DNA from: Dehalococcoidia bacterium
GTDB lineage: Bacteria > Chloroflexota > Dehalococcoidia > Lucifugimonadales > G958296245
Direction: 5' to 3'
Assembly: GCA_965262055.1 (NCBI GenBank)
Contig: CBDHEI010000001.1
Coordinates: 393,883-457,882, forward strand
Length of the DNA stretch: 64,000 bases
Every line of letters begins with the position of its first letter. Positions within the stretch are counted from its first letter, which is position 1. Shown piece after piece: positions 12,073-29,741 of the stretch. The notes under the pieces were generated by a model that saw nothing but the letters and a program-made list of their open reading frames with translations, did no database searches and was not told where the DNA came from. Position numbers and translations under genes: made by a program.

Positions 12073-12429
12073 TCACGACCCGGCGTACTCCAGCACCTGC
12101 TCCACGAATCGCCTCACCACACGGCGTCCTCTCGCTAGGTCGTCGTCCTCCATGAAACCAATGCCAGAGTTGGCGCGGAAACCCCGCGCGGCTACAAACC
12201 CGCCGACCAGCGCGTCGTCGCCAGTCTCACGGGCTATCCTGTCGGCCGCAGCCGCCAAGTGGCGTTGGCTGTCATACAGCCAACCACGTTCCTGGGCCAC
12301 CATCATCACGGCATGGGCCGCCGCGCCCCACATCTTCTCCGAGCCCTGCAGGTCGTCCCCAGCTTCGAACTCGCGGTCCGCGGCTTCCAGGAAGTCCTGG
12401 GCCGTCTGCGTATGCTCTGTCGTTTGCAT
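12073..12429 (-). CDS. PaREP1-like (HEPN-superfamily) small protein
   Basis: 118 aa; FLE.A..EF..GD..QGSEK.WGAAA.A...VA..RGW pattern; GGGGTAGGG upstream; starts 2 nt after the sufB stop. Confidence 0.75.
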   Translation of the reverse strand: MQTTEHTQTAQDFLEAADREFEAGDDLQGSEKMWGAAAHAVMMVAQERGWLYDSQRHLAAAADRIARETGDDALVGGFVAARGFRANSGIGFMEDDDLARGRRVVRRFVEQVLEYAGS

Positions 12430-12431
12430 CC

Positions 12432-13889
12432 CTACCCCACCGCGCCCTCCAGGCTGACCCGCAGAAGCTGCTGAGCCTCCATTGCGAACTCGAACGGCAG
12501 CTCCTGGAATATGTCCCGGCAGAAGCCGTTGATGATCATGTAACGCGCCTCCTCCTCGGATATGCCGCGCTGCATGCAGTAGAAGAGCTTGTCGTCGCTC
12601 ACCCTGGACGTGGAGGCCTCGTGCTCCATGCGCGCCGTCGAGTTGCGCACCTCGATGTATGGCACGGTGTGGGCGCCGCACTCGTCCCCCACCAGCAGCG
12701 AGTCGCATTGGGTGAAGTTGGTTGCGTTGTCCGCCAAGGGCATGATCTGCACCAGCCCGCGGTATGTGTTGTTACCCTTTCCCGCGGAGATACCCTTGGC
12801 TACGATGGTGCTCTTGGTGTTCTTCCCGACGTGGATCATCTTCGTGCCGGTGTCGGCCTGCTGGTGGTTGTTGACCAGGGCCACCGAGTAGAACTCGCCA
12901 GTCGAGTCGTCCCCCTGCAGGATCACGCTGGGGTACTTCCAGGTGATCGCCGAACCGGTCTCTACCTGCGTCCATGAGATCTTGGACCGCCTGCCGGCCG
13001 CCTTGCCGCGCTTGGTCACGAAGTTGTAGACCCCGCCATTGCCTTCCTTGTCGCCGGGGTACCAGTTCTGGAGGGTCGAGTACTTGATCTCGGCGTCCTC
13101 CAGGGCCACCAGCTCGACGATAGCGGCATGGAGCTGGTGCGACTTGCGCATCGGCGCGGTGCAGCCCTCCAGGTAGCTGACGTACGAGCCCTCGTCGGCG
13201 ATTATCAGCGTCCGCTCGAACTGCCCCGTCTCCTCCGCGTTGATACGGAAGTAGGTCATCAGCTCCATGGGACACCGCACGCCGGGCGGGACGTAGACGA
13301 AGGAGCCGTCGCTGAAGACGGCCGAGTTAAGCGCGGCGTAAAAGTTATCTGTGGCTGGCACCACCGAGCCCAGGTACTTCTCCACAAGCTCCGGGTGGTG
13401 CTGCACGGCCTCGCTGACCGAGCAGAAGATCACCCCGGAGTCCTCCAACACCTTCTGGTAGGTCGTGGCCACCGAGACGCTGTCGAAGATGGCGTCCACC
13501 GCCACGCCGGTCATCTTCTTCTGCTCCTCTATCGGGATGCCCAGCTTGTCGAACGCCTCGATCAGCTCGGGGTCCACGTCGTCGAGGCTCTCCGGCGAGT
13601 CGCCCTTCTTCACGGGCGACGCGTAGTAGTGGAGGTCCTGGAAGTCGATGGGCGGGAACTCGACCTTGGCCCAGTTCGGCTCCCTGTCGCCCATCTTGAG
13701 CCAGCGCTGGTATGCCTTCAGCCGGAAGTCCAGCAGGAACTTGGGCTCGTTCTTCTTGGCCGAGATCATGCGGACAATCTGCTCGTCCAACCCCTTGGGA
13801 GCGATCTCGGACTCGATGTCCGTTACGAAGCCGTACCTGTAGTCGGTCTCGATCTCCGAGGTCCTCGATATCACATTTGGCGCTACCAA
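12432..13889 (-). CDS. sufB: Fe-S cluster assembly protein SufB
   Basis: [57 protein letters not shown]. Confidence 0.98.
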
Positions 13890-13902
13890 CGACGCCCCCT
13901 TA

Positions 13903-13927
13903 TTTCTTGAGTAATATGGTCAACAAT
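13903..13927 (-). promoter_or_regulatory. IscR type-1-like Rrf2 operator
   Basis: Minus strand ATTGTTGACCATATTACTCAAGAAA matches 20/25 of the IscR type-1 consensus ATASYYGACTRWWWYAGTCRRSTAT; lies between the -10 and the RBS of sufB. Confidence 0.75.
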
Positions 13928-13928
13928 C

Positions 13929-13958
13929 ATTGTAGCCACAACCCAGCGCCCCCGTCAA
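13929..13958 (-). promoter_or_regulatory. Sigma70-type promoter of the suf operon
   Basis: TTGACG-18 nt-TACAAT on the minus strand. Confidence 0.65.
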
Positions 13959-14164
13959 ACGAATCGCAAGCCCGCAAGCCAACCCGGTAAGGCCCGCCAC
14001 CATGACCAAGGAAACAGTCTGTCACGCCGTCCGTCCCAATCAGGTGGGGAATCTGGGAGATGCACCGACGCGGAAGGGGACACTCAGGGACCCAGGTCGG
14101 CGCCGTGAACACCACCCCGTCCCTTGTCCGACAGCCGCCCGGTGCCGCACCGATTCATCAATGC

Positions 14165-16156
14165 CTACGGAGGCGTCGATACATCCAGCTCCGCTGTCGC
14201 CAGGGTCGTGTTGCCACGCTTGAGCACAGCCGTCACAGTCCCTCCACTACCCGTGCATAGGTGCACCGGCATCGTCCTCACAAACGACGTGTCCCCCGGC
14301 GACACCGGTATCGACTGCGCGTGGTAGTAGCACACCTGATAGTGGAGAGCTATGCCTACCCCGCCGGCAGGCTCGTCGTTTACCCTGCTCACATCGATGG
14401 TGTAGCTGTCCGAAGACTCAAGGTTCAACGCCTTTATACTCACCCAGAAGACCTCCCCCACCTCCATCTCGAGGCTGTCCAACACGGTCGAGTCAAGGGT
14501 GTCCAGGAACAATACCACCGGTCTGTCGGTCGGTATCGCAGTGGGCGCCGGTGTGGGCGTGGGTGTAGCTGTGGGTGTGGGGGTTGGCGTGGCGGTGGGG
14601 GTGGGCGTGGGCGTGGGGGCATCGTGCCTGCGGACGCGCAGCATCAGCTTGTCCCCCGCGCTCCAGGGCTGGGTGGGCGCCGTCCAGGTCAGCGTGCCGC
14701 CGTCCTCGGCAACGTCGGCGACGACCAGCGACAGCGTGGTGGTGCCGTCCAGGCCAATGAAGTCGAGGGCCTGCCCGGTCACGTCGATGTCCAGGTCTGC
14801 CGTGACCCGGCCCGCCTGCCATGAGATCGTGCCCACAGTCGTCGTGCCGGTGATCGATGTGTTGGAAGCGTACGAGTCGAAGAACGACTCGGCCAGCGTG
14901 CCGTCAGGTGCGCTGACCGTGAAGACGTACTCCTCCCTGTCCCGCAAGGAATCGGAGAAATAGCCGCACGGCTTGTAGATTGGGTGACGCACGTGGTAGA
15001 AGAGACGGTACTCTGCGGCGGGCAGGGGCCGGACGATCGTGATGATCCCCAGGTAGGCGTAGCCGAACAGCTGGGCGTCCGGCCCCGTGTACCAGACATC
15101 CGGGGGCTCGTAGTTTGGGGGCGGGGCGGTCGGGCGGTCGCGCCGGTTAGTGCCTTGGGCGTACATCCCTGTGCCGGCGGGCTGGCCAGACCCCATCCGG
15201 CGGTCATACCGAAGGCTCTCCTGCCACTCACCGCGCTCCTTGCGCTCCCCGATTTCGCGCTCCCTCCGGTAGGCCCCGTAGACGCAAGCCCGGGCCTGTT
15301 CGTCTCCACCGCTTTCAGTTATCCAGCGCTCAATCTCCGCGATCCGGTTGGAGACATCATCCGCCGAGGCCGTGGGGACCTGGACCACAGACACCGTGCC
15401 TCCGGCGGCGGACCTGGTGACTCCACGGACGTCGCGGCCTGACACGGATGCGACATCGAACGGGTCGTCCAGGAAGAATCTCTGCTGACCGGAGCTGGCC
15501 GCCGTTATAGTGCTACCCGCCGACCTAGCCGCCGTGCTAGTCGCCACAGCGGGCAACCACGCCTTGAAGTAATCGTCGGATACCGATACATTGAAGATAT
15601 CGGGGGAGTCCAGATTCAGGTACCCCAGCCAGTAGTGGTCTTCCGTCGCGGACTCCCGCAGGAAGACCAGGGCTTCCCGGTCCACCCACCTGTCGTCCCA
15701 GACGGCCAACAGGGCCTGGGCCTTCTGGCGGGCCGAGTCCTGGGCCGCGTGCGTCACGCGGTCGTCGTCCCGTGGGTTGGCCGCTCCGTAAGCCACGGCC
15801 TTGATCTGGGTGCCGCCCGTGCCCTTGAGGTATTCGAGCACCGTGAAGGTGAACTCCAGGGACGCGACGTACCCCAGGGGTTCCCCAAGGCCCAGGGGCT
15901 CGTGGAAGCCCTGATCCAGAATGGCCCGGTACGTCTGGGAGTGTATTCCCACGGGCTCCGCCCGCAGGAACCGCACCCTGGCGATGACCGCCGAGGCCGC
16001 GATCTTCTCGTCCAGTGAAGGCGCACCGCCGTAAGACAACAGGGGACGATTCGGCGACACGGGGTGGTGGGTCGTAACCTCCGTCCTTATGGCCGCGAAC
16101 GCCAGTACGGCCACAAGCACCGCCACAGTCACCAGAACTGCTATTGTGAGTCGCAT
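14165..16156 (-). CDS. Module 1 partner protein B1 (exported; variable N-region, PT linker, conserved C-terminal beta-rich domains)
   Basis: Hydrophobic N-terminus MRLTIAVLVTVAVLVAVLAFAA; paralogous to 18277-20297 and 21796-23802. Confidence 0.85.
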   Translation of the reverse strand: MRLTIAVLVTVAVLVAVLAFAAIRTEVTTHHPVSPNRPLLSYGGAPSLDEKIAASAVIARVRFLRAEPVGIHSQTYRAILDQGFHEPLGLGEPLGYVASLEFTFTVLEYLKGTGGTQIKAVAYGAANPRDDDRVTHAAQDSARQKAQALLAVWDDRWVDREALVFLRESATEDHYWLGYLNLDSPDIFNVSVSDDYFKAWLPAVATSTAARSAGSTITAASSGQQRFFLDDPFDVASVSGRDVRGVTRSAAGGTVSVVQVPTASADDVSNRIAEIERWITESGGDEQARACVYGAYRREREIGERKERGEWQESLRYDRRMGSGQPAGTGMYAQGTNRRDRPTAPPPNYEPPDVWYTGPDAQLFGYAYLGIITIVRPLPAAEYRLFYHVRHPIYKPCGYFSDSLRDREEYVFTVSAPDGTLAESFFDSYASNTSITGTTTVGTISWQAGRVTADLDIDVTGQALDFIGLDGTTTLSLVVADVAEDGGTLTWTAPTQPWSAGDKLMLRVRRHDAPTPTPTPTATPTPTPTATPTPTPAPTAIPTDRPVVLFLDTLDSTVLDSLEMEVGEVFWVSIKALNLESSDSYTIDVSRVNDEPAGGVGIALHYQVCYYHAQSIPVSPGDTSFVRTMPVHLCTGSGGTVTAVLKRGNTTLATAELDVSTPP

Positions 16157-16166
16157 GAGAAACCTC

Positions 16167-17796
16167 TCAGTGTGGCCGCCCACCGTGCTGGCGGTAGACT
16201 TGGTGAGCGTACTCGATGTCCGTGGCGGGTATGCCGCCGTTGGGCAGTGGCTTCCTGTAACCCATCAGGTAGTGGTACTTGAGCGACGGAAACGCGTACA
16301 GGTCGTCCAACATTAGGGTATGACCCCACTCGTGGAGTGCGGTCCGGTAAAACCAGAGATACTTCTTCCAGGGGTTGTGGTCGACTTCTTCCAGATGCCG
16401 GTCTTCGTCAAGTGTCCATAGCCCCCGGACCGGCAGCCCCAGGTAGTAGTCCATCGCGACCACCGGGGTCACGATGGTGAGGCTGGAGGCCGAGATGTGG
16501 TCCGTAAGAGGGTTGGTTAACGGCCTCGTGTTGTAGACGCACGCGACAGCGAAGGGGGGGCAACTTGTGGTAGGCGCCGTCCTGACCTGCACATTGGCCT
16601 CGTCGCGGTTGCGACCCCGGCATTCGGGGCGATTGGAAGGGATTTCGCAGAACACTATGTCCGGCCAGGAACCCGACAGGGCCCGATGCCAGGTGTAGGC
16701 GGCGGCCCGCAGCATGGGGTACACGTCTTGGAGACTCATGTCGTCGGCAAAAGAGTCTTCCGACTCCTCGTCCGGCAGAGGCTCGAAGTAGAAAAAGACC
16801 GCATGATCACGCTGGTGAAGGCCGCCGTGAGGCACCAGCTCCTGCCGCACCATTTCCAGGGTTAGCCTCGTGGTGGCATCGACGGCCTGAGGGTTGACCA
16901 ACCGGGCCTCCACCACGTAATTGCCGCGGTCAAGCCCCATGCCCAATCTGCTATTGAGGGTGTTGGACTCTAGGCTGTCGTTGTTTGAACGCAGGAGGCC
17001 TCTACGCTCGAACTCGTGGTCCGCCCGGTGGAGCAAGATCTCGGTGTCCAGCCCGTGGCCCTTCAGGTCGACAATCACGTGTCCGTCTATAGGTAGGTGG
17101 AACTTGAACAGCTGGCACGCATTCCGCCAGTCAGCCGTTACGTCCCTGGTGAGCACCAGAGGGTCCAGACTGTGTTCCAGACAATCTGGTGTGGGGGTCG
17201 CGGTGGGCGTTGCCGGCTCGGCCGTTGGCGGCACGGGCGTGTCTGTGGGCGGTGGCAGCACGGGCGTGTCTGTGGGCGGTGGCGGCACGGGCGTGTCCGT
17301 GGGCGGTGGCGGCACGGGCGTGGGCGGGACGGGCGTGGGTGGCACGGGCGTGGGTGGCACGGGCGTGGGTGGCACGGGCGTGGGTGGCACGGGCGTGGGT
17401 GGTACGGGCGTGGGCGGCACGGGCGTGGGCGGCACCGGGCGTGGGCGGCACGGGCGTGGGCGGCACAGGCGTGGGCGCCACGGGCGTGGGCGGCACAGGC
17501 GTGGGTGGCACGGGCGTGGGCGGCACGGGCGTGGGCGGCACGGGCGTGGGCGGCACAGGCGTGGGCGGCACGGGCGTAGGCGGCACGGGCGTAGCGGTCG
17601 GGGCTGGCGTTAGGATCCAGCAGTAATGAGGGTTGTCGCAGCAATCGAGGTCATCGGGGCCGTCGCAGGGATCGTACCCGCGGCCGGATGTCGCCGGATC
17701 CGCCGCCGCGCTCTGCCGGCGGCTCCTGCGCGTTGACGTAGAGAGCGAACGTGAGACGGACGCCAGAACGAGCAGACCGACTAGCAACCTCACCAT
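16167..17796 (-). pseudogene. Module 1 protease A1: leader, Cys motif, about 18 PPTPV repeats, PPC-like domain, metzincin-like domain; frameshifted in the repeat tract
   Basis: ORFs 17131-17796 and 16167-17435 join across an extra C at about 17436; HEWGHTLMLDDL with downstream YLMG Met-turn. Confidence 0.75.
17230..17600. repeat. 15-bp tandem repeat (GGCGGCACGGGCGTG-type) encoding PPTPV, plus PPPPTDTPV units
   Basis: About 18 consecutive units; one unit has a 1-nt insertion. Confidence 0.95.
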
Positions 17797-19030
17797 ACCG
17801 GCCTCGCAATGCGAAAGGGGAAATCGGGGTCACTGGGGGCGCTTGGACGCGTTGGCCGACGCTACTTGCGGGTTACGGCAGTATCGACGCGACACAGTAA
17901 TCATATCACACCGATACAAGGCCCACACACTTACACTCGCGCAGACATACAAAGACCATGAGACGACTTCCGTCGCAGAGGTGGAATGCGACCCAACTTA
18001 GCCTTCTGTAGGTTAAACGAGCGTCTGGTAAGGCCTCGATATTCGCAGGGTTCGGGCGGCGTGTACAATGCAGCCGCTGGGACATCCACCTCCATGAGGG
18101 CTCGGAGGGCTGAAGATGGCTGAATACGATTATGACTTGGTGGTCATAGGGTAGGGTCCAGCGGACCAGCGCGCACGCCGATCAAACATGCCAGGGCCGG
18201 GTCCGGATGCTCGGTACATCCACCCAAGGACGACAACCCTGCTCGAACGGCACGCCCGGCGACCGGCCACAAACATCTACGGAGGCGTGGATACCTCCAG
18301 GTCGGCGGTGGCCAACGTCGTATCCCCCTGTTTCAGCACTGCCGTCACAGTCCCCCCAGTCCCCGTGCACAGCTTGACAGCCATCGTCCTGGCATACGAC
18401 GTGTTCCCAGACGACACGTCTATCGACTGAGGCGTGTATCCGCACGCCTGATAGTGGAACACGATGCCAACCCCGCCGGCAGGCTCGTCGTTCACCCGCG
18501 TCAACTCGATCGTGTAGCTGGCCGACCGCGCCAGGTTCAACGCCTGTATACTCACCCAAAAGACCTCCCCCACCGCCATCTCGAGGCTATCCAACACGCT
18601 CGCGTCAAGGCTGTCCAGGAACAGTATCACCGGTCTGTCGGTCGGTATCGCAGTGGGCGCCGGTGTGGGCGTGGGTGTAGCCGTCGGTGTGGGTGTTGGC
18701 GTGGCTGTGGGGGTGGACGTCGGCGTGGGGGCATCGTGCCGGCGGACGCGGAGCATCAGCTTGTCGCCGGCGCTCCAGGGCTGCGTGGGCACCGTCCAAG
18801 TCAGCGTCCCGCCATCCTCCGTGGCGTCGGCGACGATCAGCGACAGCGTGGTCGTGCCGTCCAGGCCGATGAAGTCTAGGGCGTGGCCGGTGACGTCGAT
18901 GGTCAGGTCCGCGGTGACCCGCCCCGCCTGTCCTGAGCCTGCCGAAGGGGACTGCCATGAGATCGTGCCCACGGTCGTGGTGCCGGTGACCTGTCCGGCA
19001 GACAGGTCGGCGTAGGGGTCGAAGAACGAC
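17579..19030. repeat. Long direct repeat, copy 1 (5' end of A1, intergenic region, 3' end of B2)
   Basis: Near-identical to 21097-22540 at offset 3518/3519 for the first about 750 bp, then strongly similar through the B C-terminal region. Confidence 0.9.
18116..18175 (+). pseudogene. 5' remnant of a pyridine nucleotide-disulfide oxidoreductase (SthA/Lpd-like)
   Basis: Reads MAEYDYDLVVIG*GPADQRA after a GGAGG RBS and TACAAT; resembles the FAD-binding start YDYDLVVIGSGPAGQRAA. Confidence 0.65.
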
Positions 19031-20297
19031 TCGTGCATCGTGTCGGCGCTCGCCGTGACCGTCAGGTTGACCGCGAAGTTCCTGCGCCACACCTCCGGGG
19101 TCACGTCACACAGCCGCTGCTCGGCGGTCAGCCACCGGAGCCACGCGTGGTAGCTCCCCGCTGGCAGGGGGCGGGTCGCGACGATCACGAACGGCCAGAC
19201 GCCCGACAGCACGTCGCTGTCCGGCCCCTCCGTGAAGAAGACCTCGCCGCCCTCCGGGCCGGACGCGCGGAACTCCAGCCCCAGCGTCGAGGGCGTCTCC
19301 ATCACCCGCGTCCCCGAGGGCATCCCGGAGGCCATCTCCACCTCCCTGGGGGGGCTCGTCGTCGGGGTCGTCAGGGAGTTGCTGTGCCACTCGTACTTCG
19401 TGACGACGCAGCTGCGGTACGCCTGGGACCCATCGCCGCCAGTCAGCTCGCGCGAGATCTCCGAGACGGTGTCCCGGAGGCTCGAGAGCGTGGCGGTCGG
19501 CGCGCCGCCGACCGTGGGTGGGTCGACCGCCGACCGCCCCACGGAGCCGCCTCCCCCCGCCGACTCGTAGTCGGCGGGGTCGCGCAGCAGGAACCTCTGG
19601 GCCTGCGGCTCGAACCTCACGCCCGTGCCCCCGGAGGGAGCGTCGGCGTCCGGCAGCCAGGCCCTCCACAGCGTCGACGCGACCGTGTAGTCCCACTCGT
19701 GCCCCTCCTCCGCCCGCACCAGCCCCAGGAAGTGGTGGCGCTCGGCCTCATTCCACCGGAGGAACACCACGGCCTCCCTGTCGTCCCACCGGGAGTCCCG
19801 GAGGCCGAGCAGACGCCGACCCAGCTCGGTGGCCCCCTCGACGGTGGACGAGGCGTACTCGTCGCTCGGGTTGTTGAAGCCGTAGGCGTAGGCCACGATC
19901 GTCGTGCTGGCCGTGTCCCCCCTCAGGAGCTCCAGGACGTCGAGGGTGAGGGCCAGCGCCCCGTTGTAGCCGGTGGAGGGTCCGGCGTAGACCTCCGGCA
20001 TCCTGGCGGCAGCCGCCTCGACGCCACGGAGGCGCACCCTCGCCACGATGGAGGACTTCACGATCATCTCCTCCAGCGAGGCCGGGACGTCGAACGCTCG
20101 CCCCCACCAACTCTCGTAGACAACCTCCCCCGGCTCGGCCGTCGGCTCGGCGGTCGGCTCGGCGGTCGGCGGGACGGCCGTGGGGGCCGACGCGCGCGCG
20201 GGCTCCGGCACCGTGGCCGGGGGCCGGGGGCGGGGCCGTCCGAGCACGCCGCGAGCGCGAGCGCCGCGAGCGCGATGAGCGAGCGTATCCTGTGCAT
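18277..20297 (-). CDS. Module 2 partner B2, predicted lipoprotein; apparent frameshift in the C-rich run at about 20220-20237
   Basis: MHRIRSLIALAALALAAC lipobox from 20297 is out of frame with the 656-aa body (18277-20247), which is paralogous to B1 and B3. Confidence 0.75.
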
Positions 20298-20309
20298 CGG
20301 TGCCCTCCC

Positions 20310-21315
20310 CTAGTGAGAGATGTGGTCGCGGTATACCTGTAGCAGGTAGGCCCTGTCACGGTCCGTGAGCACCCGGTTGCCCCCAGCCGTGTGCATCACC
20401 ATCCCAACGTATCGCGGCACGGGGGGGTCCCGGAGGTCGTCCAGGCCGAGGGTGTGCCCCAGTTCGTGGAGGATGACTGCGGGGAGGTAACGGAAGTAGT
20501 CCGTCCCGACTAGCTTCCCGTTGTCCGCCGCCACATCCGTCCAGGTCACGAGCCTGCCCCTCCCGTACGCGGGGTTCTCGATCCTGAAGGTGAGCGCCCC
20601 CATGTGGCCGCTGATCGGGGGCTCGCCGTACATCACGCACGCGATGGTGCGCCCGCAGCCGACGCCGCTCCGGCTCGGTGGGGTGTTGACGCTCCTTGAG
20701 CCCACCACGACCTCGATGTCGGTGACGTGCCCCTCGGAGCCGCTGCAAGACCCCGACTCGCACACCTCCACCAGACCGTTCGAGGCCGCCTCCCACTGCC
20801 CGGCCAGCCCCTCCACGAGCGCGGAGCCCGCCCAGGCGGGCAGGGCGCTAGCGCCCGCCGCCACGGTCGGGCCGGTGTACGCGACCCTGCGGTCCCCCTG
20901 GTGGTGCCCGGCGTGGGTGTACTGTGGCTCCGCCCAAATCAACAGCTGGTAGGTGCTGCCCGCGAGGGGCGCTCGGCTGATCTCCGCCACGACGGTGTAC
21001 CCCCCAGGGGGGACGTTCCTGCCCAGCAGGGACTCCTCCCCGGACCCCTCCCACGTGTCGTCGTTGCTCGCCACCACGGGCGTGTCTGTGGGCGGTGGCG
21101 GCACGGGCGTAGCGGTCGGGGCTGGCGTTAGGATCCAGCAGTAATGAGGGTTGTCGCAGCAATCGAGCTCATCGGGGCCGTCGCAGGGATCGTACCCGCG
21201 GCCGGATGTCGCCGGATCCGCCGCCGCGCTCTGCCGGCGGCTCCTGCGCGTTGACGTAGAGAGCGAACGTGAAGACGGACGCCAGAACGAGCAGACCGAC
21301 TAGCAACCTCACCAT
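20310..21315 (-). pseudogene. Module 2 protease A2 (metzincin-like); signal peptide out of frame, repeat stalk and half of the PPC-like domain missing
   Basis: [17 protein letters not shown]; the frame starting MVRLLVGLLVLASVFTFALYVNAQE ends at TGA while GYDPCDG..NPHYCW continues in another frame. Confidence 0.7.
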
Positions 21316-22540
21316 ACCGGCCTCGCAATGCGAAAGGGGAAATCGGGGTCACTGGGGGCGCTTGGACGCGTTGGCCGACGCTACTTGCGGGTTACGGCAG
21401 TATCGACGCGACACAGTAATCATATCACACCGATACAAGGCCCACACACTTACACTCGCGCAGACATACAAAGACCATGAGACGACTTCCGTCGCAGAGG
21501 TGGAATGCGACCCAACTTAGCCTTCTGTAGGTTAAACGAGCGTCTGGTAAGGCCTCGATATTCGCAGGGTTCGGGCGGCGTGTACAATGCAGCCGCTGGG
21601 ACATCCACCTCCATGAGGGCTCGGAGGGCTGAAGATGGCTGAATACGATTATGACTTGGTGGTCATAGGGTAGGGTCCAGCGGACCAGCGCGCACGCCGA
21701 TCAAACATGCCAGGGCCGGGTCCGGATGCTCGGTACATCCACCCAAGGACGACAACCCTGCTCGAACGGCACGCCCGGCGACCGGCCACAAACATCTACG
21801 GAGGCGTGGATACCTCCAGGTCGGCGGTGGCCAACGTCGTATCACCCTGCTTGAGCACAGCCGTCACAGTCCCCCCAGTACCCGTGCACAGGTGGACCGC
21901 CATCGTCCTGACAAACGACGTGTTCCCCGACGACACCGGTATCGACTGCGCGTGGTAGTAGCACGCCTGATAGTGGAACACGATGCCAACCCCGCCGGCA
22001 GGCTCGTCGTTTACCCTGCTCACCTCGATGGTGTAGCTGTCCGACGACTCCAGGTTCAAGGCCTTCACACTCACCCAAAAGACCTCCCCCACCGCCATCT
22101 CGAGGCTATCCAACACGCTCGCGTCAAGGCTGTCCAGGAACAGTATCACCGGTCTGTCGGTCGGTATCGGAGTGGGTGTCGACGTGGGCGCAGGAGCCGG
22201 TGTGGGTGTGGGCGTAGCCGTCGGTGTGGGGGTAGGCGTGGGCGTGGAGGCATCGTGCCGGCGGACGCGGAGCATCAGCTTGTCCCCGGCGCTCCAGGGC
22301 TGCGTGGGCACCGTCCAGGTCAGCGTGCCGCCGCTCTCGGTCGCGTCGGCGACAATCAGCGACACCGTGGTCGTCCCGTCCAGCCCTATGAAGTCGAGGG
22401 CATGGCCGGTGACGTCTACGGTCAGGCCCGCCGTGACCCGGCCAGCCTGCCCTGAGCCCGCCGAAGGAGGCTGCCATGAGATAGTGCCCACGGTGGTCGT
22501 GCCGGTGACGGCGCCGGCGGCGGCGTACGGATCGAAGAAC
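21097..22540. repeat. Long direct repeat, copy 2
   Basis: Counterpart of 17579-19030. Confidence 0.9.
21635..21694 (+). pseudogene. Second copy of the SthA/Lpd-like 5' remnant
   Basis: Same sequence as 18116-18175, including the TAG. Confidence 0.65.
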
Positions 22541-23802
22541 GACTCCGTCAGGGTTCCGGGCGGTGCGGTCGCGGTGAAAACGTATTCCTCGTCGTGCCTA
22601 GATCCGGGGTAAACGTCGCAGATGGACATTGCGGTGCTTCGAGCAAGGTAGAACACCCGGTAACCCCCCGCCGGCAGCGACCGGGTGGCGACCACATGGC
22701 CCGGCTCCTCCATGCGTATCAGGTCGGCGTCCGGGCCCTCGAACCACTGGCCCGGCCCTGAACCCTCTGGCAGAGGCGGCGGCGGTATACTCCTGAAGGC
22801 GATGGCGAAGGAGTGGAGGATTCCGGCCTTGCCGGACTCGACCGCCTGATCGGTGCGCCAGTAGCTCCAGCCCACCGCCTTGCGACGGCTGATCTCGTGG
22901 TGGAGGTCTGCGATGCAGTCGCTGTAGGTCTCGGCGCTATGACCGGGCGCTGTCCGCTTCACCTCCGCAATCTGGCGCTCGACCGCCGCGATCCGGGCCT
23001 TCAGGTCGGACAGCCCGACGGACGGCACAACCGGGGTAGCCGGTGCTGCGCCCGCCCCTCCTGACCTGGCTGACCCTGCGGCGCTGCGGGTTGTTGCCCA
23101 CGGGCGCAGCCCAGGGTCTTCCGTAAGAAAGCGCTGCTCGACCTTGGGTTCATCACCTTCGCCGGAGCGAACCGCAGCCCTTGTCGTCGTGGCCGTCGTC
23201 GTGGCCGGAATACTCGCGTCGGGGAGCCATGCCTTGAACTCGGTGCTGCGCACCGTGAAGTTGCGGTATGAACGCTCCAGGTCGAGGAGGCCTAGCCAGT
23301 AATAGTCATGGGCGGGGACATGCCTGAGAAACAGGATAGCTTCGCGGTTCTCCCACCGGAGGTCTCGCACTTCCAGCAGGTTCTCGGCGAGCTTGGCTGC
23401 CTTCGCCTGAGTGGTCGCGTAGATAGCCGAATCGTCGTTGAATCCTTCAACATCCGACCCTACTGCATAGGCCGTGACCTGTGAGCCGCCGGAGCCCTTC
23501 AGGTACTCAAGGACCGTGAAGGTGTATTCCAGAGCGGCATAATATCCCGTGTCCTTCGTTGCGCTGGAGGGGTAGTTCTGTGGGGCGCGTTGCCCCACCG
23601 CCCGGACGGACGCGAACCGAACCCGCGCCACGACCTTCGAGCGGGCCGCCATCTCCTCGATGGAGGACGGCCCGACCTGCCCGTACACGTCGGTGGCCAT
23701 GACCAGTTCTTGCGTTCCCCAATTCTTGACCGCGAACAGCGCACCGCCGAGCAGTGCCAGCAGGACAATGACCGCTATGGACACGCTTACGAGTATACGC
23801 AT
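21796..23802 (-). CDS. Module 3 partner B3 (exported or membrane-anchored)
   Basis: 668 aa, hydrophobic N-terminus, strong RBS, paralogous to B1 and B2. Confidence 0.88.
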   Translation of the reverse strand: MRILVSVSIAVIVLLALLGGALFAVKNWGTQELVMATDVYGQVGPSSIEEMAARSKVVARVRFASVRAVGQRAPQNYPSSATKDTGYYAALEYTFTVLEYLKGSGGSQVTAYAVGSDVEGFNDDSAIYATTQAKAAKLAENLLEVRDLRWENREAILFLRHVPAHDYYWLGLLDLERSYRNFTVRSTEFKAWLPDASIPATTTATTTRAAVRSGEGDEPKVEQRFLTEDPGLRPWATTRSAAGSARSGGAGAAPATPVVPSVGLSDLKARIAAVERQIAEVKRTAPGHSAETYSDCIADLHHEISRRKAVGWSYWRTDQAVESGKAGILHSFAIAFRSIPPPPLPEGSGPGQWFEGPDADLIRMEEPGHVVATRSLPAGGYRVFYLARSTAMSICDVYPGSRHDEEYVFTATAPPGTLTESFFDPYAAAGAVTGTTTVGTISWQPPSAGSGQAGRVTAGLTVDVTGHALDFIGLDGTTTVSLIVADATESGGTLTWTVPTQPWSAGDKLMLRVRRHDASTPTPTPTPTATPTPTPAPAPTSTPTPIPTDRPVILFLDSLDASVLDSLEMAVGEVFWVSVKALNLESSDSYTIEVSRVNDEPAGGVGIVFHYQACYYHAQSIPVSSGNTSFVRTMAVHLCTGTGGTVTAVLKQGDTTLATADLEVSTPP

Positions 23803-23814
23803 AGCTTCCCCCCT

Positions 23815-25053
23815 CTAGTGATCATGCTCGCGGACGACCTGGTGCATGTACTGGATGTCTTTGGACGGTACGGTGTTGCGCTTCACGGACGAGCCCATGA
23901 GGTAGCTGGGGAGAGTAGGAAGGTCATCGAGTCCCAACGTGTGCCCGAACTCGTGAAGCATGACCCCGGGCATGTAGGCATATAAGACCCCCATAAACTC
24001 CACGTTATGCAGGTCTGGATCGGAGTCTTGCCAAGTAAATACGCGCCTGTGTGCAGTCGGTGGCTGCTCTATGTCGAATGTCGGTCTGATGTGGATGGGA
24101 GGGCCCAGCAGCACGGGCCACCTTGGTCCGAATTTCGCGCACGCATAACTCCCATTTCCACAGGCCCCGGCGTCGTTGGTCACGGTGATAGGGATCACGT
24201 GGTCGTCGCTGTTCCGGTCGTCGCACAACGTGTCGCTTGCCAGACAGACCCGCTGATTCGGCCAGAAACCTCCGACCGCGACGTTCCAGGCGTTGGCCGC
24301 GCCGCTGATCGACCTGCTGAACAGCCGCCCCACTTCCGTCGCGATCGACGGCATATTGTGGAGGCTGTAGGCAGACGTGCCGTCCGGCTGGTGTCGTCCG
24401 TCATGCGGAATGTGTATCCAGCGCTGGAGCTGGATCGTGAGCACTTTGGAAGCTGTCGCCTGCGAAGGGTCCTTGAGCCGGGCCTCAATGACATGGCTCC
24501 CCGCCTGAAGATGCCGCCCCAAGCGCGAGTCGATGCTCCCGCGGGTCTCCGGGTTATCGTCATTGTACCCCAGGGTCTCCGTGATGGACGTGGCACCCCG
24601 CCCGCGATGCAGTTTCAGTGTGACGTCCAGCCCGGAGCCCTTGATGTCCACCAGAACGTGGGCACCGTGAGACGAGACATAGAAGACGAAATAGCGGCAG
24701 GCCAGGCCCCAGTCGTCCGTGTCGATGATCGTGCTGCCCGGCGTCAGCACCTTGGGGTCCACGTCTCTCTGGGTGCAGGTAGTGGGGTTTGGCGTGGGCG
24801 TGGGTGTCGGCGTGAGGGTAGCCGTCTTGGTCGGTGTCGGCGTCGGTGTTCTGGTCGGTGTCGGGGTAGCCGTCTTGGTCGGTGTCGGCGTCGGTGTTCT
24901 GGTCGGTGTCGGGGTAGCCGTCTTGGTCGGTGTCGGGGTCGGTGTTCTGGTCGGCGTGGGCGTGCTGGTCGGCGGCCAGCAGTGTGGGTTGAAAGCGTAG
25001 TAGTCGGGATCGCTGCAACTCTCTGGGGTAGTCCTGCGCTGGCCTGAGCTCTC
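23815..25053 (-). pseudogene. Module 3 protease A3 (PT/KT stalk, PPC-like domain, metzincin-like domain) with decayed 5' end
   Basis: [16 protein letters not shown]. The frame is open upstream through the stalk and [14 protein letters not shown] to a TAG at about 25054-25056, with no start codon before the stalk. Confidence 0.7.
24790..24970. repeat. 48-bp tandem repeat (about 3 copies) encoding [16 protein letters not shown]
   Basis: GTAGCCGTCTTGG recurs at 24818, 24866 and 24914. Confidence 0.9.
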
Positions 25054-25112
25054 CTACGGGTTAGCGTAGCAGCGAACCTGGCAAAGCGCTCATATCACAC
25101 AAGAAAGAGACC

Positions 25113-25141
25113 TTGACAGCAACGAACGCATGTCCTATTCT
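25113..25141 (+). promoter_or_regulatory. Sigma70 promoter with a LexA-like box in the spacer
   Basis: TTGACA-17 nt-TATTCT; GAAC-GCAT-GTCC at 25124-25135 is one mismatch from GAAC-N4-GTTC. Confidence 0.6.
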
Positions 25142-25234
25142 ATGCCCATGAGAACAGCAGATGACCGCCGCGCCGGGACGCCCCCGCTGGCCCTCGGCCT
25201 GCCAGGAGCCTCGCGGAAAGAGGCCGTTGACGCC

Positions 25235-25314
25235 GTGTCACATCCCGTCACATCGGCGTCCCTTCCAGTCACATCCGTGTCACGTCGTGTCAGGTTCGTA
25301 TCACGCCCCTGTAA
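25235..25314. repeat. Helically phased GTCAC-like repeat array
   Basis: Cores at 25237, 25247, 25258, 25268, 25279, 25289, 25300 and 25311. Confidence 0.7.
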
Positions 25315-25340
25315 GGTGGGCCAAAGCTGAAAGGGGCAAA

Positions 25341-25829
25341 ATGTTACAAAACGTTGCGGACACAGAGAATTCCAGCCCACCCGACGAGCAAGACCGGAGC
25401 GCCGAAGACCTTCCCGCTCCCGCCGATTCTCCACACGCTGACGAGCCGGTCCGTCTCACGCACAGGCAGATCACCGCGCTCCCATACCTCCTCTCCTCCG
25501 GGACGGTAGCAGAAGGGAGCAAGCTGGCTGGTATATCGCGCACCACCTTCTACCGCTGGATGGAAGACGAAGCCTTCAGGGCCCAGTTCGAGGAACTCCG
25601 GGCCGACGTCCAGAGCTACGCCTACGCCGAGCTGCGAGGCCTCACCCTCAAGGGTGCCCTCGTCCTCGCGCAAATGCTCGAAGACCCATCGTCCGCCATT
25701 AGGCTCAAGGCCGCGCAGATGGCCGTCTCCGCGGGCATGAGGGTCGGCGACCAGGCTGACTTCCAGAAGAAGCTCGCCCGCATCGAAGACGCATTCTCAG
25801 TCCACCAGTCGAGAAAGACCATCCTGTGA
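25341..25829 (+). CDS. HTH protein resembling phBC6A51-like / terminase-small-subunit-like proteins
   Basis: LTHRQITAL..LL....VAE....AGISRTTFYRW..DEAF, followed by a helical region with IRLKAA. Confidence 0.65.
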   Translation: MLQNVADTENSSPPDEQDRSAEDLPAPADSPHADEPVRLTHRQITALPYLLSSGTVAEGSKLAGISRTTFYRWMEDEAFRAQFEELRADVQSYAYAELRGLTLKGALVLAQMLEDPSSAIRLKAAQMAVSAGMRVGDQADFQKKLARIEDAFSVHQSRKTIL

Positions 25830-26170
25830 AGGCTAGGCTCAGAGCCCTGGAACGCGCCCTCGTCCTCGAGCTCACCGAGATCGCTCTGGCCGAAGCCCTC
25901 GAGCAGCTCAAGGGCAGGTGGGATCGCGCCGCCTCCGACGGAGGCCCCGAGCCCAGCTCCTTCGACCTCGCCGACGCCCTGCGCGACGCCGGAGTCGCCG
26001 GAGTCCCGGCACTCCCCTACGCCCTTAGCTACGTCGACCGCCACGCCCGCGACGACGGAGGCCCCGACTGCGCCCAGATCTTCAAGATACTCCTGCGAGG
26101 CTCCCCCGTACCCGCCACCCTGGAACGGCCCCAACCCCCAGAGCGGGAATCTACTCCCGGTAGGTCGTAA
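25826..26170 (+). CDS. Hypothetical protein, translationally coupled to the HTH gene
   Basis: GTGA start/stop overlap; begins KARLRALE. Confidence 0.6.
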   Translation: MKARLRALERALVLELTEIALAEALEQLKGRWDRAASDGGPEPSSFDLADALRDAGVAGVPALPYALSYVDRHARDDGGPDCAQIFKILLRGSPVPATLERPQPPERESTPGRS

Positions 26171-27479
26171 CGTCCAGGATGCTCCTCAACAGGCTCAGGT
26201 AGCGCTCCTTCGTCATCGGGGCCTTGTAGGCGGCCTTGATCTCGTGGGCGCGCTTGGCCCCGCCGGAAAGCAGGTCTATGACCGTCATGGCCATCGCCTT
26301 CGCCGCCGTCGGCACGGCCAGCTCGTAGTCGTCTATCAGGTAGTCGGCCCCGTGGGCGCGCCCGGCCGAGGCCCTGACGTACGGGTGGATGACCGGCATC
26401 AGCTGCGATACGTCCCCCATGTCGGTGGAGCCGGAGCGGTGGCCCAGGTCTACGACCTTGTCCGCCCCCACCAGGTCGGAAGCATTGCGCCGGAACAGGT
26501 TGACCATCGACTCGTCGCTGCGGATGGGGAAGTAGCCGGGCAGGGTCTGAATGGTAACGCTCCCCCCCACGGCGAGGGCGCCCGCGCGCAGCGCCCGGTC
26601 CACCTTGGCGGCGGCGGAGGTCACCGCCTCCACGCTGCGGGCGCGCACGAAGGTCTCCAGCCGCACGTCCGCTGGCACCGAGCTCACCGCAGCGCCGCCG
26701 CGTGTGATGATCGGGTGTATTCGCACCGAGTCCTCGTCCCGGTGGGTCTCCCTCTGCGCGTGGATCGCCGTCAGCGCGATCATCGACGCGTTCAGGGCAT
26801 TGACTCCCGCGTGAGGCGCAGCTCCAGCGTGAGCCGCCACCCCCTCGAACCTGACGAGCTTTGCCACCATCCCGTTGTTGGAGCCGCCCACGGCGAACTT
26901 TGCTGTTTCTGGGGAGGACACGGTATGGGTCATCATGGCCATATCCACGTCGTCGAGCGCTCCCAGCCTGATGAACTCCGGCTTGCCCGCCAGGAACTCC
27001 AGCGCGCCGTCCCGCCTCAGCTCGTCCCTGTACCCGATCTCGATATACTCCTCGGCAGGCACGACCACGAGGGCGACGCGCCCCGAAAGCTCCTCCATGA
27101 CACCGGGCGCCATGAGGCCCGTCGCAACCGCCATCAACGCGCCGATCTGGCAGTGGTGGCCGCAGGCGTGTGCCGCCCCGGTCTCGGGGTCGGCGTGAGG
27201 ATGTCCGGGCACGATGAGCGAGTCCAATTCCGCCATCACGGCGACCGTGGGGCCGGGCCTCCCGGAATCGAGAACGGCCTTCAGGCCGGTCACCGCGATG
27301 CCGTCCTCGAACGGGATCGACAGCCGCCTGAACGCCTCGGCGACGCGCGCCGCCGTCTTCACCTCCCGGAACCCGGCCTCGGGCGCGTTCAGTATCTCCT
27401 TGGACAACGCCACAGCCTCGTGCCCGTGGCGGTCTATCTCGGCGCTGGCCGCGCCCTTAAGCTCTTCCGGTGTCATCAT
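26151..27479 (-). CDS. M20-family amidohydrolase
   Basis: PEAGFRE, AELD, HACGH, PAEE, AHAG..PH.G.NAL, GSTDMGDVS. Confidence 0.92.
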   Translation of the reverse strand: MMTPEELKGAASAEIDRHGHEAVALSKEILNAPEAGFREVKTAARVAEAFRRLSIPFEDGIAVTGLKAVLDSGRPGPTVAVMAELDSLIVPGHPHADPETGAAHACGHHCQIGALMAVATGLMAPGVMEELSGRVALVVVPAEEYIEIGYRDELRRDGALEFLAGKPEFIRLGALDDVDMAMMTHTVSSPETAKFAVGGSNNGMVAKLVRFEGVAAHAGAAPHAGVNALNASMIALTAIHAQRETHRDEDSVRIHPIITRGGAAVSSVPADVRLETFVRARSVEAVTSAAAKVDRALRAGALAVGGSVTIQTLPGYFPIRSDESMVNLFRRNASDLVGADKVVDLGHRSGSTDMGDVSQLMPVIHPYVRASAGRAHGADYLIDDYELAVPTAAKAMAMTVIDLLSGGAKRAHEIKAAYKAPMTKERYLSLLRSILDVTTYRE

Positions 27480-27993: not shown

Positions 27994-29741
27994 CCGGGAT
28001 TTCCCATATTGGGAGTCTTCAGGCTCAAGGGGCAGCCCAAACGAGATGTTAGCATCATAGTCAGGTCCTGCAAGGCCAGTCAATCGCCGGTCTATCCGAT
28101 AAGAGATGCGTTTGCAGTCGTAGAGCACCCTTCTTGTCCGTCTTCATCGTCCTCGTGTCCCCTGCCAGTGGGGTGAAAGCGCATTGAAGACAAGGCGACT
28201 CCCTGGAGCGCTCTCCCCCTCTTGGCAAGATCGTGGTGGCATCCTCCCTCAGCTTGGCGCCGGCGATAACCGGCCGATACGATCCAACACTCCCTGGAAC
28301 AACCGTCGAGGAACCGACACCTCGGACAACTGAAAGATCAACCACCGGGAGTGCCGCACCAGACGGCCTCCCATCTTGATCAGCTTGACCTGCACGCTCC
28401 GCAGCGACCAGTGCTTGACCGCCTTGGGCAGACACAGCCGGCGAAGGAAGTTCCCAAGGTTGTACGCCAGGACGAACAGAGACAGACGCACCCGGTTGGC
28501 CACGAACCGATGGCACGACAGCCGAGTCCAGTTCAGGGCGTACTTACCCTCCTTGATCCACTGCTCGGCTGTCCCGCGACCATTGTAGAATCGCACCACT
28601 CCTTCGGGGCCAGCCGTCATGTTCGTGACGATGAAGCCCACTCGGGGGAACAGCTCTCCCCTGTGCCACTCCACCTTGGCCACCACCCGCCGTGCCCGGT
28701 CCCAACTCCCGGCACGATACCAAAAGTCGTCGTATAGGATCACTGGACGCTTCGGCGGCCTCCCCACCGGCCTCCTGAGCAGAGGGGCGATCTCCCGTTG
28801 CAGCACCTCGTTGCCGGGGAGTCTTATAGCGTAAAGGACGTGCCGCTCCTCGAGGTACTCATAGATGTCCGGCTTAGCGAATGCGGCATCGGCGCGAAAG
28901 TACCGTCGCACTCCTGTCGCCCCGTAACGCGACAGGATCGGATCCAATACATCACGCCACCTGTGCGCGCTATGTACGTTCCCCGCACGCAGCTTGGCGC
29001 CCTCGCAGTCACCGAACTGGTTGAACACGAACAGAGGGTGACAGCACGTGCTCCCAAAGTGTCCGTTGTACGACGCTCCCTCCTGTTCTCCATGTACCGG
29101 ACTTTCCGAACTGTCCATGTCCAAGATCACCCGCCGGTGCGGCGTGCGGGACATAGCTCCATCCACCCACTTAGCGTTCAGTCGGCCCAACCCTTCCACG
29201 TTGCCGTCTTGGGTGAGCACCTCGGTCTCGAACCGGCTCATGGTGTTGGTGCTGGCGGCCGGTCTCTCAGGACCACCTCGCCGTCCAACGATGATCCGCA
29301 TCGTCGGGTCCTGGGCCAGCCGTTCAGCGTCGTTGGTATCCTCGTAGCCCGCCAGACGACTGTACACCGACTGCCTGAGAAGGCCCACCAATCGGTGCTG
29401 CACGTTGCGACCGCCCCGACTCTCCTGCAGACACTCATTCGTCGTCTCCGTCAGTCCCAGCGCATCATCCAGCTCGCGACAGGCCAACAGTCCGGCGTCT
29501 GAGGTAATAGTGGCACCGTGGAACTCCAACCGTACACGTCGGTCGAAACGGAGCTTGGCGCGGAGGTTTGTGCTTTCACCCATTGGGTGCCTCCAGAGTG
29601 GGTACGTTATCAAGATCTAAAGCAGTCTATCACGACCAGTCTAGCACTCATGATCACCACTGTGCTCTGCTATGCGGCTACATCGGGTAGTTCCGTTGCT
29701 GATTACGGCAAGCCCTGCAGGGTTGATATGGGAAATGTGGG
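27994..29741 (-). mobile_element. IS1380-family insertion sequence, copy 2 (complete)
   Basis: Imperfect terminal inverted repeats CCGGGATTTCCCATATT (27994) and GATATGGGAAATGTGGG (29725-29741); no target duplication seen. Confidence 0.88.
28249..29583 (-). CDS. IS1380-family DDE transposase
   Basis: 444 aa from ATG 29583; about 13 amino-acid differences from copy 1 by eye. Confidence 0.95.
   Translation of the reverse strand: MGESTNLRAKLRFDRRVRLEFHGATITSDAGLLACRELDDALGLTETTNECLQESRGGRNVQHRLVGLLRQSVYSRLAGYEDTNDAERLAQDPTMRIIVGRRGGPERPAASTNTMSRFETEVLTQDGNVEGLGRLNAKWVDGAMSRTPHRRVILDMDSSESPVHGEQEGASYNGHFGSTCCHPLFVFNQFGDCEGAKLRAGNVHSAHRWRDVLDPILSRYGATGVRRYFRADAAFAKPDIYEYLEERHVLYAIRLPGNEVLQREIAPLLRRPVGRPPKRPVILYDDFWYRAGSWDRARRVVAKVEWHRGELFPRVGFIVTNMTAGPEGVVRFYNGRGTAEQWIKEGKYALNWTRLSCHRFVANRVRLSLFVLAYNLGNFLRRLCLPKAVKHWSLRSVQVKLIKMGGRLVRHSRWLIFQLSEVSVPRRLFQGVLDRIGRLSPAPS

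Follow-up and report, generated by a model that had tools for sequence, protein, structure and literature searches.

The window analysed here (the whole stretch of 64,000 nucleotides, positions 393883-457882 of contig C1) belongs to genome G000 of a Dehalococcoidia bacterium, which comprises 4.22 Mb on two contigs with approximately 65% G+C. Six long minus-strand frames in this window represent three head-to-tail units of two genes, of which the first (A) encodes a predicted secreted metalloprotease and the second (B) a predicted exported partner protein. These pairs, A1-B1, A2-B2 and A3-B3, had been recognised in the original prediction, which was made by reading the sequence alone, and their coordinates could now be established. 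The narrow gap of 10-12 nucleotides (nt) between both genes, also described there, is found in all three: the distance from the A stop codon to the B ATG amounts to 12 nt in units 1 and 2 and to 10 nt in unit 3, and the gaps are purine-rich and GGAGG-like. All motifs named in that prediction are present, namely NPH(Y)CW, H.G.HQ.D and HE.GH.L.LDDL in every A as well as ESFFD and STPP in every B, and the Met-turn reads YLMG in A1 and A3 and MVMH in A2. The features of the array, as derived from open reading frames (ORFs), motif scans and alignments, are the following (aa, amino acids).

23815..25035, minus strand: A1 open frame, without start or leader (ORF, motif scan; A profile positions 5-306); it also holds a Pro/Thr stalk and a PPC-like segment
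24976-25017, minus strand: A1 Cys motif (motif scan)
24382-24405, minus strand: A1 H.G.HQ.D (motif scan)
23920-23955, minus strand: A1 zinc motif HE.GH.L.LDDL (motif scan)
23893-23904, minus strand: A1 YLMG Met-turn (motif scan)
21796..23802, minus strand: B1, intact, 668 aa, hydrophobic N-terminal anchor (ORF, alignment)
22531-22545, minus strand: B1 ESFFD (motif scan)
21796-22545, minus strand: B1 conserved arm (alignment)
21316..21795, minus strand: spacer arm between B1 and A2, 100% identical to 17797-18276
20310..21315, minus strand: A2, signal peptide with ATG at 21315 in a frame that stops at ~21171, body from ~21200; short stalk and only about half of the PPC segment (A profile from position 49)
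20433-20468, minus strand: A2 zinc motif HE.GH.L.LDDL (motif scan)
18277..20297, minus strand: B2, lipoprotein leader with ATG at 20297 and lipobox LAAC, body ORF 18277-20247
18277-19032, minus strand: B2 conserved arm (alignment)
17797..18276, minus strand: spacer arm between B2 and A3 (alignment)
16167..17796, minus strand: A3, two parts in different frames
17131-17796, minus strand: A3 N part with leader, Cys motif and 15-nt PTPVP repeats (ORF)
16167-17435, minus strand: A3 C part with stalk, PPC and protease (ORF)
16299-16334, minus strand: A3 zinc motif HEWGHTLMLDDL (motif scan)
14165..16156, minus strand: B3, intact, 663 aa, hydrophobic N-terminal anchor (ORF, alignment)
14876-14890, minus strand: B3 ESFFD (motif scan)
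14165-14935, minus strand: B3 conserved arm (alignment)

Conserved arms and divergent cores

Divergence is not uniform along the three units but uneven, with a sharp break near the ESFFD motif of B. Identity between the B proteins of this genome, measured in 40-aa windows, is 0.03-0.47 up to B1 residue ~405 and 0.55-1.00 from there on. The B genes are 77-97% identical from the ESFFD codons onwards, with a rate of synonymous substitutions (dS) of 0.15-0.5, and 20-50% identical upstream of them, with dS values of ~1 or higher, and the DNA alignment of B1 and B2 starts exactly at these codons (22545 and 19032). At B residue ~420 the rate of nonsynonymous substitutions (dN) drops from 0.5-1.2 to 0.02-0.2 and dS from ~0.7-1.7 (3.6 in one window) to 0.15-0.7. 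The conserved tract continues beyond the end of B, since the 480-nt spacer is 100% identical between both junctions and the 5' ends of A2 and A3 are 98.2% identical. Altogether, the stretch 21799-21090, which comprises the end of B1, the spacer and the 5' end of A2, matches the corresponding stretch 18280-17572 between B2 and A3 with 99.4% identity over 710 nt.

The layout described in the original prediction, a divergent block of A protease and B N-region between conserved arms, was thus found here, and it recurs in relatives. For the genomes G001 (a congener, in which the units are dispersed), G024 and G015, comparison at the DNA level showed 80-99% identity at the 3' end of B and at the 5' end of A, and the middles of the units gave no match at a cut-off of 80% identity over 150 nt. 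We compared 22 complete A-B pairs from seven genomes and found identities within and between genomes of 0.89 versus 0.45 for the ~100-aa segment of B that follows ESFFD (called "sandwich" here on account of its sequence pattern only), of 0.37 versus 0.32 for the B N-region and of 0.35 versus 0.31 for the A protease. Paralogous pairs in G024 and G001 show dS values of 0.00-0.1 in the N-terminal extensions of A versus 0.4-1.2 in the protease, and overall dS is 0-0.5 in the arms and ~0.4-1.5 in the cores. The low dS of the arms demonstrates that they share a recent common origin by conversion, as opposed to being held similar by constraint. We read these comparisons as homogenisation of the unit ends inside each genome, through gene conversion or unequal recombination. 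The tract concerned comprises B from its ESFFD motif down to the stop codon, the spacer, and the leader and stalk of A, and every relative examined shows the same.

The C-terminal tails of B are themselves mosaic, as a protein with 97% identity to B1 (P0001) carries a B2-type patch where B1 has a B3-type one. A further observation comes from the assembled contigs of public sequencing runs, which were used instead of raw reads for all allele comparisons: run X5 differs from the window at more than 30 positions within ~130 nt at the boundary of core and arm in B1 (22564-22694), and the rest of the contig differs little. This cluster looks like a recombination or conversion tract.

Concerted evolution is known for parts of surface-protein multigene families. 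The A-B units resemble such families in that one segment is homogenised (low dS) beside old divergent segments and in that mosaic patches occur. They differ from them in that homogenisation extends over both genes together with the intervening spacer and acts also on units that are dispersed around the chromosome. With its sharp border at a conserved motif, the array is an unusually clean natural case of segment-specific concerted evolution over two genes and a spacer.

The two proteins and their linkage

Protein A starts with a signal peptide for export, which is followed by a small Cys motif and a Pro/Thr stalk; a PPC-like domain and a matrixin-like metzincin domain of ~195 aa make up the rest. 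A search with A1 among 1.84 billion representatives resulted in 177 relatives at E ≤ 1e-3, 52 at E ≤ 1e-10 and nine at E ≤ 1e-30. In relatives of A, the protease domain is always located C-terminal to long extensions made up of stalks and of fn3, cadherin-like and Ig domains. An alignment of 59 A sequences revealed H270, E271, H274, G277, D280, M289, G122, H124, Q125, D127 and several cysteines as invariant or nearly so, and both the HExxHxxGxxH/D zinc motif and the Met-turn are present at the sequence level. The A profile matches MMP-8 (E 4e-5), fragilysin BFT-3 (E 7e-5) and snapalysin-type enzymes (PDB 1c7k and 4hx3; E 0.02 over 19 positions only) in the PDB. These alignments cover only positions 223-303. 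They correspond to the C-terminal third of the known proteases, where zinc helix, Met-turn and final helix are located, and M289 aligns to the Met-turn region of MMP-8. Among the 59 A relatives, Pfam assigns Peptidase_M10 (PF00413, E ≤ 0.01) to 12, PPC to five (best E 4.5e-6) and fn3 to seven. The A proteins of the window itself remain below the threshold for M10 (13.9 bits at a cut-off of 24) and gave no match to PPC (PF04151).

Other searches contributed little. A phmmer search of A1 against the PDB returned two irrelevant matches only (E 0.1), a homologue search with the A1 frame (406 aa) was dominated by matches to its Pro/Thr stalk and gave the window's own protein as the only close match, and Pfam, NCBIfam, PADLOC and PHROGs yielded nothing but motif-level or Pro/Thr-linker matches for the A and B proteins.

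We classify A as a putative distant matrixin-like metzincin in which an Asp occupies the site of the third zinc ligand, and the assignment as an Asp-type metzincin made in the original prediction holds at the level of motif and profile. With matrixins (M10A), fragilysin and snapalysin (M7), A shares the HExxHxxGxxH/D motif, the Met-turn and the terminal helix. It differs from them in that it can be aligned only over the last 50-70 residues and possesses a PPC-like domain N-terminal to the catalytic one as well as conserved extra cysteines. Snapalysin is a small single-domain enzyme of ~130 aa with Asp as third zinc ligand; this position is occupied in the same manner in A, but the domain of A, with its ~195 aa, is larger.

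Protein B has a length of ~660 aa and comprises an N-region of ~380 aa, the sequence ESFFDP, the sandwich segment, a Pro/Thr linker and a tail of ~115 aa. Its 97 relatives are all unnamed proteins, and Pfam assigns no domain to the core of any of them. No relative of the ~500-aa core was found in Pfam, NCBIfam or the PDB, where a profile of 75 sequences matched only linkers and tail domains (cadherin in three cases, fn3 in two, leucine-rich repeats (LRR) in one, and Ig-like domains). The invariant residues include C296, C395, R374 and E420-S-F-F-D-P. According to a rule-based classification of the 75 N-termini, 29 have a lipobox, 37 another hydrophobic segment and nine neither of the two; B2 belongs to these nine, several others of which show lipobox-like ends with AC or GC. 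From these features we take B as an exported and modular surface protein with a lipid or transmembrane anchor. A likeness of its N-terminal strand pattern to TIMP/NTR modules found no support in any search and was dropped.

Some B proteins deviate from this layout. Contig C2 of G000 carries a solo B (L053:3254-5581) with a lipoprotein leader and a full B core, which is continued in frame by a complete domain of the MvaI/BcnI restriction-endonuclease family (PF15515, E 8.6e-10). This domain occupies residues 583-777 if counted over the stop-to-stop frame, and immediately downstream follows a gene for a DDE transposase. Two B cores head to tail in one frame occur at L027:5448-8507 (1020 aa) and in protein P0013 (932 aa), and G001 possesses tandem B-only arrays without A and without C-terminal tails (L026, L027).

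The distribution of the family is patchy. B was detected at E ≤ 1e-20 in nine of 40 relatives of the order, with 20 matches in one congener and no strong one in the other, and class-wide 31 of 301 sampled genomes match, clustered in few families. The A-B operon family is restricted to some lineages of Dehalococcoidia. A search of genome contigs revealed one locus, and none of 352 pattern matches in JGI metagenome contigs was confirmed. Outside the array, G000 has only the solo B and a B fragment, both on contig C2, and no further A. The search for additional pairs, as suggested originally, was thus successful in relatives, with no extra A in G000 itself.

Linkage of the two genes is nearly complete from the side of A. 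Outside G000, 22 distinct A genes were found (E ≤ 3e-5), and for 21 of them a match to B lies directly downstream, the sole exception being G023:C3:299872, and the order A-then-B with a coupling of 10-12 nt is retained in at least seven genomes of several families. The view of A and B as a conserved linked module is hereby supported. From the side of B the picture is different: the window and 33 further loci contain 32 A-B pairs and 18 B frames without an upstream A, some of which are fragments or duplicates of split genes. Tails of at least 60 aa beyond the sandwich are present in 25 of 29 A-linked B proteins versus four of 17 B proteins without A, and three of these four are split or duplicated pieces of A-linked genes.

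Age of the cores and possible roles of the pair

The trees of the A protease and of the B N-region are congruent. Three clades are common to both, each of which joins a unit of G000 to units of G001 or G023, with support values in the SH-like approximate likelihood-ratio test (SH-aLRT) of 99/98, 98/92 and 89/90, and the units of G000 take three label changes on either tree. In the tree of the sandwich segment, by contrast, the units of a given genome all cluster together (support 90 for G000, 99 for G024 and 100 for G015). All of these trees were quick ones with several long branches. Identities of A protease and B N-region are correlated with r = 0.71 over all pairs and r = 0.84 within genomes, values reached by 0 of 5000 within-genome permutations. 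The cores of the nearest congener units are 36-44% identical, versus 96% for SufB and 88% for glycerate kinase, and the dN/dS of the cores is 0.16-0.66 per window, which is relaxed but purifying, with no positive selection in window averages. From the trees and identities, we read the three units as three old core types, each of them more closely related to units from other species than to those beside it.

These data bear on the exchangeable cassette of protease and cognate partner that had been proposed for this locus. Spelled out as a toxin-immunity system directed against competitors, A would be a polymorphic protease, B its immunity protein and recombination in the arms the means of swapping cores. 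Polymorphic toxins like Rhs and CDI proteins have a constant N-terminal and a variable C-terminal part, a variable partner encoded downstream, and partner-only copies. All of this is also seen in the A-B units, in which constant ends enclose a variable middle; the B-only copies could be orphan immunity genes, and the solo B is fused to a restriction-endonuclease-family domain. Toxin domains of such systems differ in fold, whereas all A-B cores belong to one profile family, with presumably one fold, and fall into old cross-species clades. In place of a small immunity protein there is an exported protein of 660 aa with a constant C-terminus of its own. PADLOC gave no matches, and dN/dS is below 1. 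Moreover, the same cores recur at ~97-99% identity in other samples, so that no recent swapping is seen. With cores that are old lineages and arms that are young, gene conversion of the arms fits better than swapping of the cores. The exchangeable cassette is hence not borne out, the analogy to toxin-immunity systems is weak, and we regard this explanation as very improbable.

Taken as a whole, the locus is in our opinion best explained as an array with homogenised ends, encoding a secreted protease A and its cognate tethered partner B, an explanation to which we incline with moderate confidence. A would act as an extracellular protease. The variable N-region of B, tethered to the membrane, might bind the cognate A and in this way retain it on the cell surface, mask it or help it to fold, in a manner comparable to potempin-type or foldase-type partners. 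Owing to the constant ends, export, stalk and tail would function alike in all copies.

Several points weigh against such a protease-partner pair. B is approximately five times larger than known co-transcribed inhibitors, and no A-B fusion protein was found among the 150 A relatives listed. B occurs without A at 18 places and should therefore have a role of its own. The nearest neighbours of A and B agree for only 11 of 22 units, the dN/dS values of the cores do not indicate an arms race, and co-divergence is expected from plain co-duplication of adjacent genes, too. Finally, the module may be inactive in this strain, since all three A genes look disabled (see below).

B is the better conserved gene and also occurs on its own, which A hardly ever does; this would also agree with B being the substrate. 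A would then serve as maturase or sheddase for the cognate B only and, by a cut that might lie near ESFFDP, release or activate the constant part of sandwich, linker and tail. ESFFD is invariant and marks the border of core and arm exactly, and the long tails prevail in the A-linked B proteins. However, this tail association was observed among related genomes and is not independent, and ESFFD may be a mere domain border. We consider this explanation unlikely.

A different role of the constant ends would be that of a docking interface, in which the Cys motif and stalk of A bind to the tail of B like dockerin to cohesin, so that any A could sit on any B of the same genome. The homogenisation of both ends in each genome would thereby be accounted for. 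Both ends are indeed genome-specific, and the length of the A extension correlates with that of the B tail (Spearman 0.68, n = 26, values not independent); the four pairs with a B tail of less than 20 aa have short A extensions. In G001, the module of A leader and Cys motif was found only at A loci (8 of 8 matches). On the other hand, docking is pure inference. The adjacency of a B 3' end to the next A 5' end explains joint conversion in tandem arrays only, and dispersed units convert their two ends separately, for which no interaction is needed. There is in our view only a small chance that docking accounts for the constant ends.

It could also be that there is no direct interplay at all and that a degradative protease and an adhesin-like surface protein are simply co-expressed and were duplicated together. 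Congruent trees follow from co-duplication alone, and the domains in relatives (cadherin, LRR, fn3 and Ig in the B tails; fn3, cadherin-like and Ig in the A extensions) would suit such proteins. The conserved order and 10-12 nt coupling across at least seven genomes of several families, together with the near absence of A without B, argue against it, and we regard it as unlikely.

The idea of a protease-partner pair can be extended to surface proteases of a "plug-and-play" type, with the genome-specific ends as a common scaffold for docking and export and the co-diverging cores as cognate protease-regulator pairs of differing specificity. We see this as quite doubtful. If it were true, the ~500-aa core of B would be a new class of membrane-tethered metzincin-binding domain.

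The assumed relation of A and B can be compared with known enzyme-partner systems. In the LipA-Lif system, the gene of a secreted enzyme is followed by that of an anchored foldase with a flexible linker, which is specific for its own enzyme. The A-B units resemble it in that the enzyme gene is closely followed by the gene of an N-terminally anchored partner with a flexible linker. There is no homology, and B forms enzyme-less tandem arrays, in which foldases are not known to occur.

The nearest worked-out analogy would be the KLIKK/potempin system of Tannerella forsythia, in which every secreted peptidase is reported to share a transcript with a lipoprotein that inhibits it specifically (PMC9890683). 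Both systems (for KLIKK/potempin: PMC9890683, PMC4404884) consist of several paralogous loci with a secreted peptidase, in some cases a metzincin, and a membrane-anchored lipoprotein partner a few bases away, both show a near-identical terminal region in otherwise divergent genes, and both include orphan partner-like ORFs. Here, too, the gene of an anchored partner adjoins the peptidase gene (10-12 nt; lipobox in the B2 leader). The differences are that potempins have 98-132 residues and are encoded upstream, whereas B has ~660 residues and is encoded downstream; that the shared region is the peptidase C-terminus in KLIKK proteases but the protease N-terminus and partner C-terminus here; and that potempins and B have no sequence relation, inhibition being shown for the former and guessed for the latter.

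In the literature library searched, we found no paper that combines metzincins with Dehalococcoidia, nor Dehalococcoidia with gene conversion and a metalloprotease. The present analysis defines an undescribed two-gene family that is expanded in some uncultured Dehalococcoidia. Should B prove to bind the protease, it would represent a novel way of regulating the matrixin-like enzymes of bacteria.

Broken genes and setting of the array

The original prediction had assumed a leader in every A, which does not apply: A1 has none, the leader of A2 is out of frame and A3 is split in its stalk repeat. Altogether, B1 and B3 are intact and A1, A2, A3 and B2 are broken. The frame of A1, which sits at the edge of the array, is closed by a TAG and a TGA within 25 codons upstream of the Cys motif, and no export signal was found upstream of this motif. 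An alternative genetic code as explanation for these stops was dropped, since only one of them is a TGA and the flanking genes read normally. In A2 there is a good signal peptide (ATG at 21315), but its frame differs from the one used by the body, and in B2 the lipoprotein leader is likewise out of frame with the body ORF (18277-20247). In A3 an insertion of 1 nt (an extra G) at ~17436, within the array of 15-nt repeats, separates leader and stalk from PPC domain and protease; it was read from the assembly, with no run contig spanning it. A deletion of 1 nt at 17754 relative to A2 brings the ATG of A3 in frame with the Cys motif.

Among the public runs, X1 is possibly the source sample and thus not independent, while X5 and X7 come from other studies; many short-sided joints in the comparison of run contigs were disregarded. 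Runs labelled with a particular habitat contained small shares only and did not enter the comparison, and no habitat is assigned. X1 agrees with the window at position 20218. X5 and X7 have an extra G at this position (depth 40.3 of 40.3 and 19 of 19), which would put the B2 leader in frame. A base at 21197 is missing in X7 (20.1 of 20.1) but not in X5 (0 of 60.9), and its loss would bring leader and body of A2 into one frame. Because of these in-frame alleles, the frameshifts in A2 and B2 are natural polymorphisms in short G runs and not obvious assembly errors. A deletion at 21272 in an X1 contig probably derives from the near-identical A3 copy and was set aside as uninformative on A2. The order of the three units was read from the assembly alone, as the contigs of the public runs bridge neither the arms (17288-18769 and 21843-22288) nor the stalk of A3. 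RNA contigs of run X15 map to A3, B3 and B1, with DNA carry-over being possible, and none of them bridges an A-B junction.

In the congener G001, three of eight A leader modules are in a frame separate from the protease, so that broken A genes are common in the family. In the class-wide survey, 24 of 82 places showed stops inside the match; this was dropped as a count of pseudogenes, because short forms of B end naturally near profile position 497. In the genome studied here the array is partly decayed, and most of its protease genes look disabled.

Compared with two congeners, the array is an insertion that extends over 13973..25322 (no strand assigned; locus comparison). Homology to the congeners ends at 13962-13973 on the sufB side and restarts at 25322 (G001) or 26145 (G002). 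The SUF operon downstream of the array is intact, with SufB (12432-13889) followed by SufC, SufD and SufS, and upstream there are genes for a helix-turn-helix (HTH) protein (25161-25829), an M20 peptidase and a DDE transposase. In G002 the M20 gene follows ~170 nt past sufB and the slot is empty, whereas in G001 the slot is filled by genes for a BNR-repeat protein and an alpha/beta-hydrolase. In both congeners the interval from sufB to the M20 peptidase gene is free of A and B, and the 11.3-kb array is thus an insertion in a variable slot adjoining sufB.

A few smaller features were noted around the array. The DDE transposase gene (28249-29613) is likewise absent at this place in G001 and G002. 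The HTH protein (25161-25829, plus strand) has weak matches to an IS-type HTH (Pfam, E 1.7e-4) and to phage small-terminase families (PHROGs, E 1.4e-6). An ORF of 211 aa between the sufC-like gene and sufB (12073-12708, minus strand) matches the archaeal PaREP1/PaREP8 family (E 2e-7), an odd insert for a SUF operon. Rfam gave 0 matches in 13000-26500, and a scan for promoters and terminators revealed nothing above chance that bears on the A-B units. Approximately 140 nt of the 480-nt spacer (21418-21557) have a 90% identical copy on C1, ~23 kb before the window, and a piece of 60-100 nt left of A1 (25233-25330) has five copies of 73-86% identity on C2; both may be small dispersed repeats.

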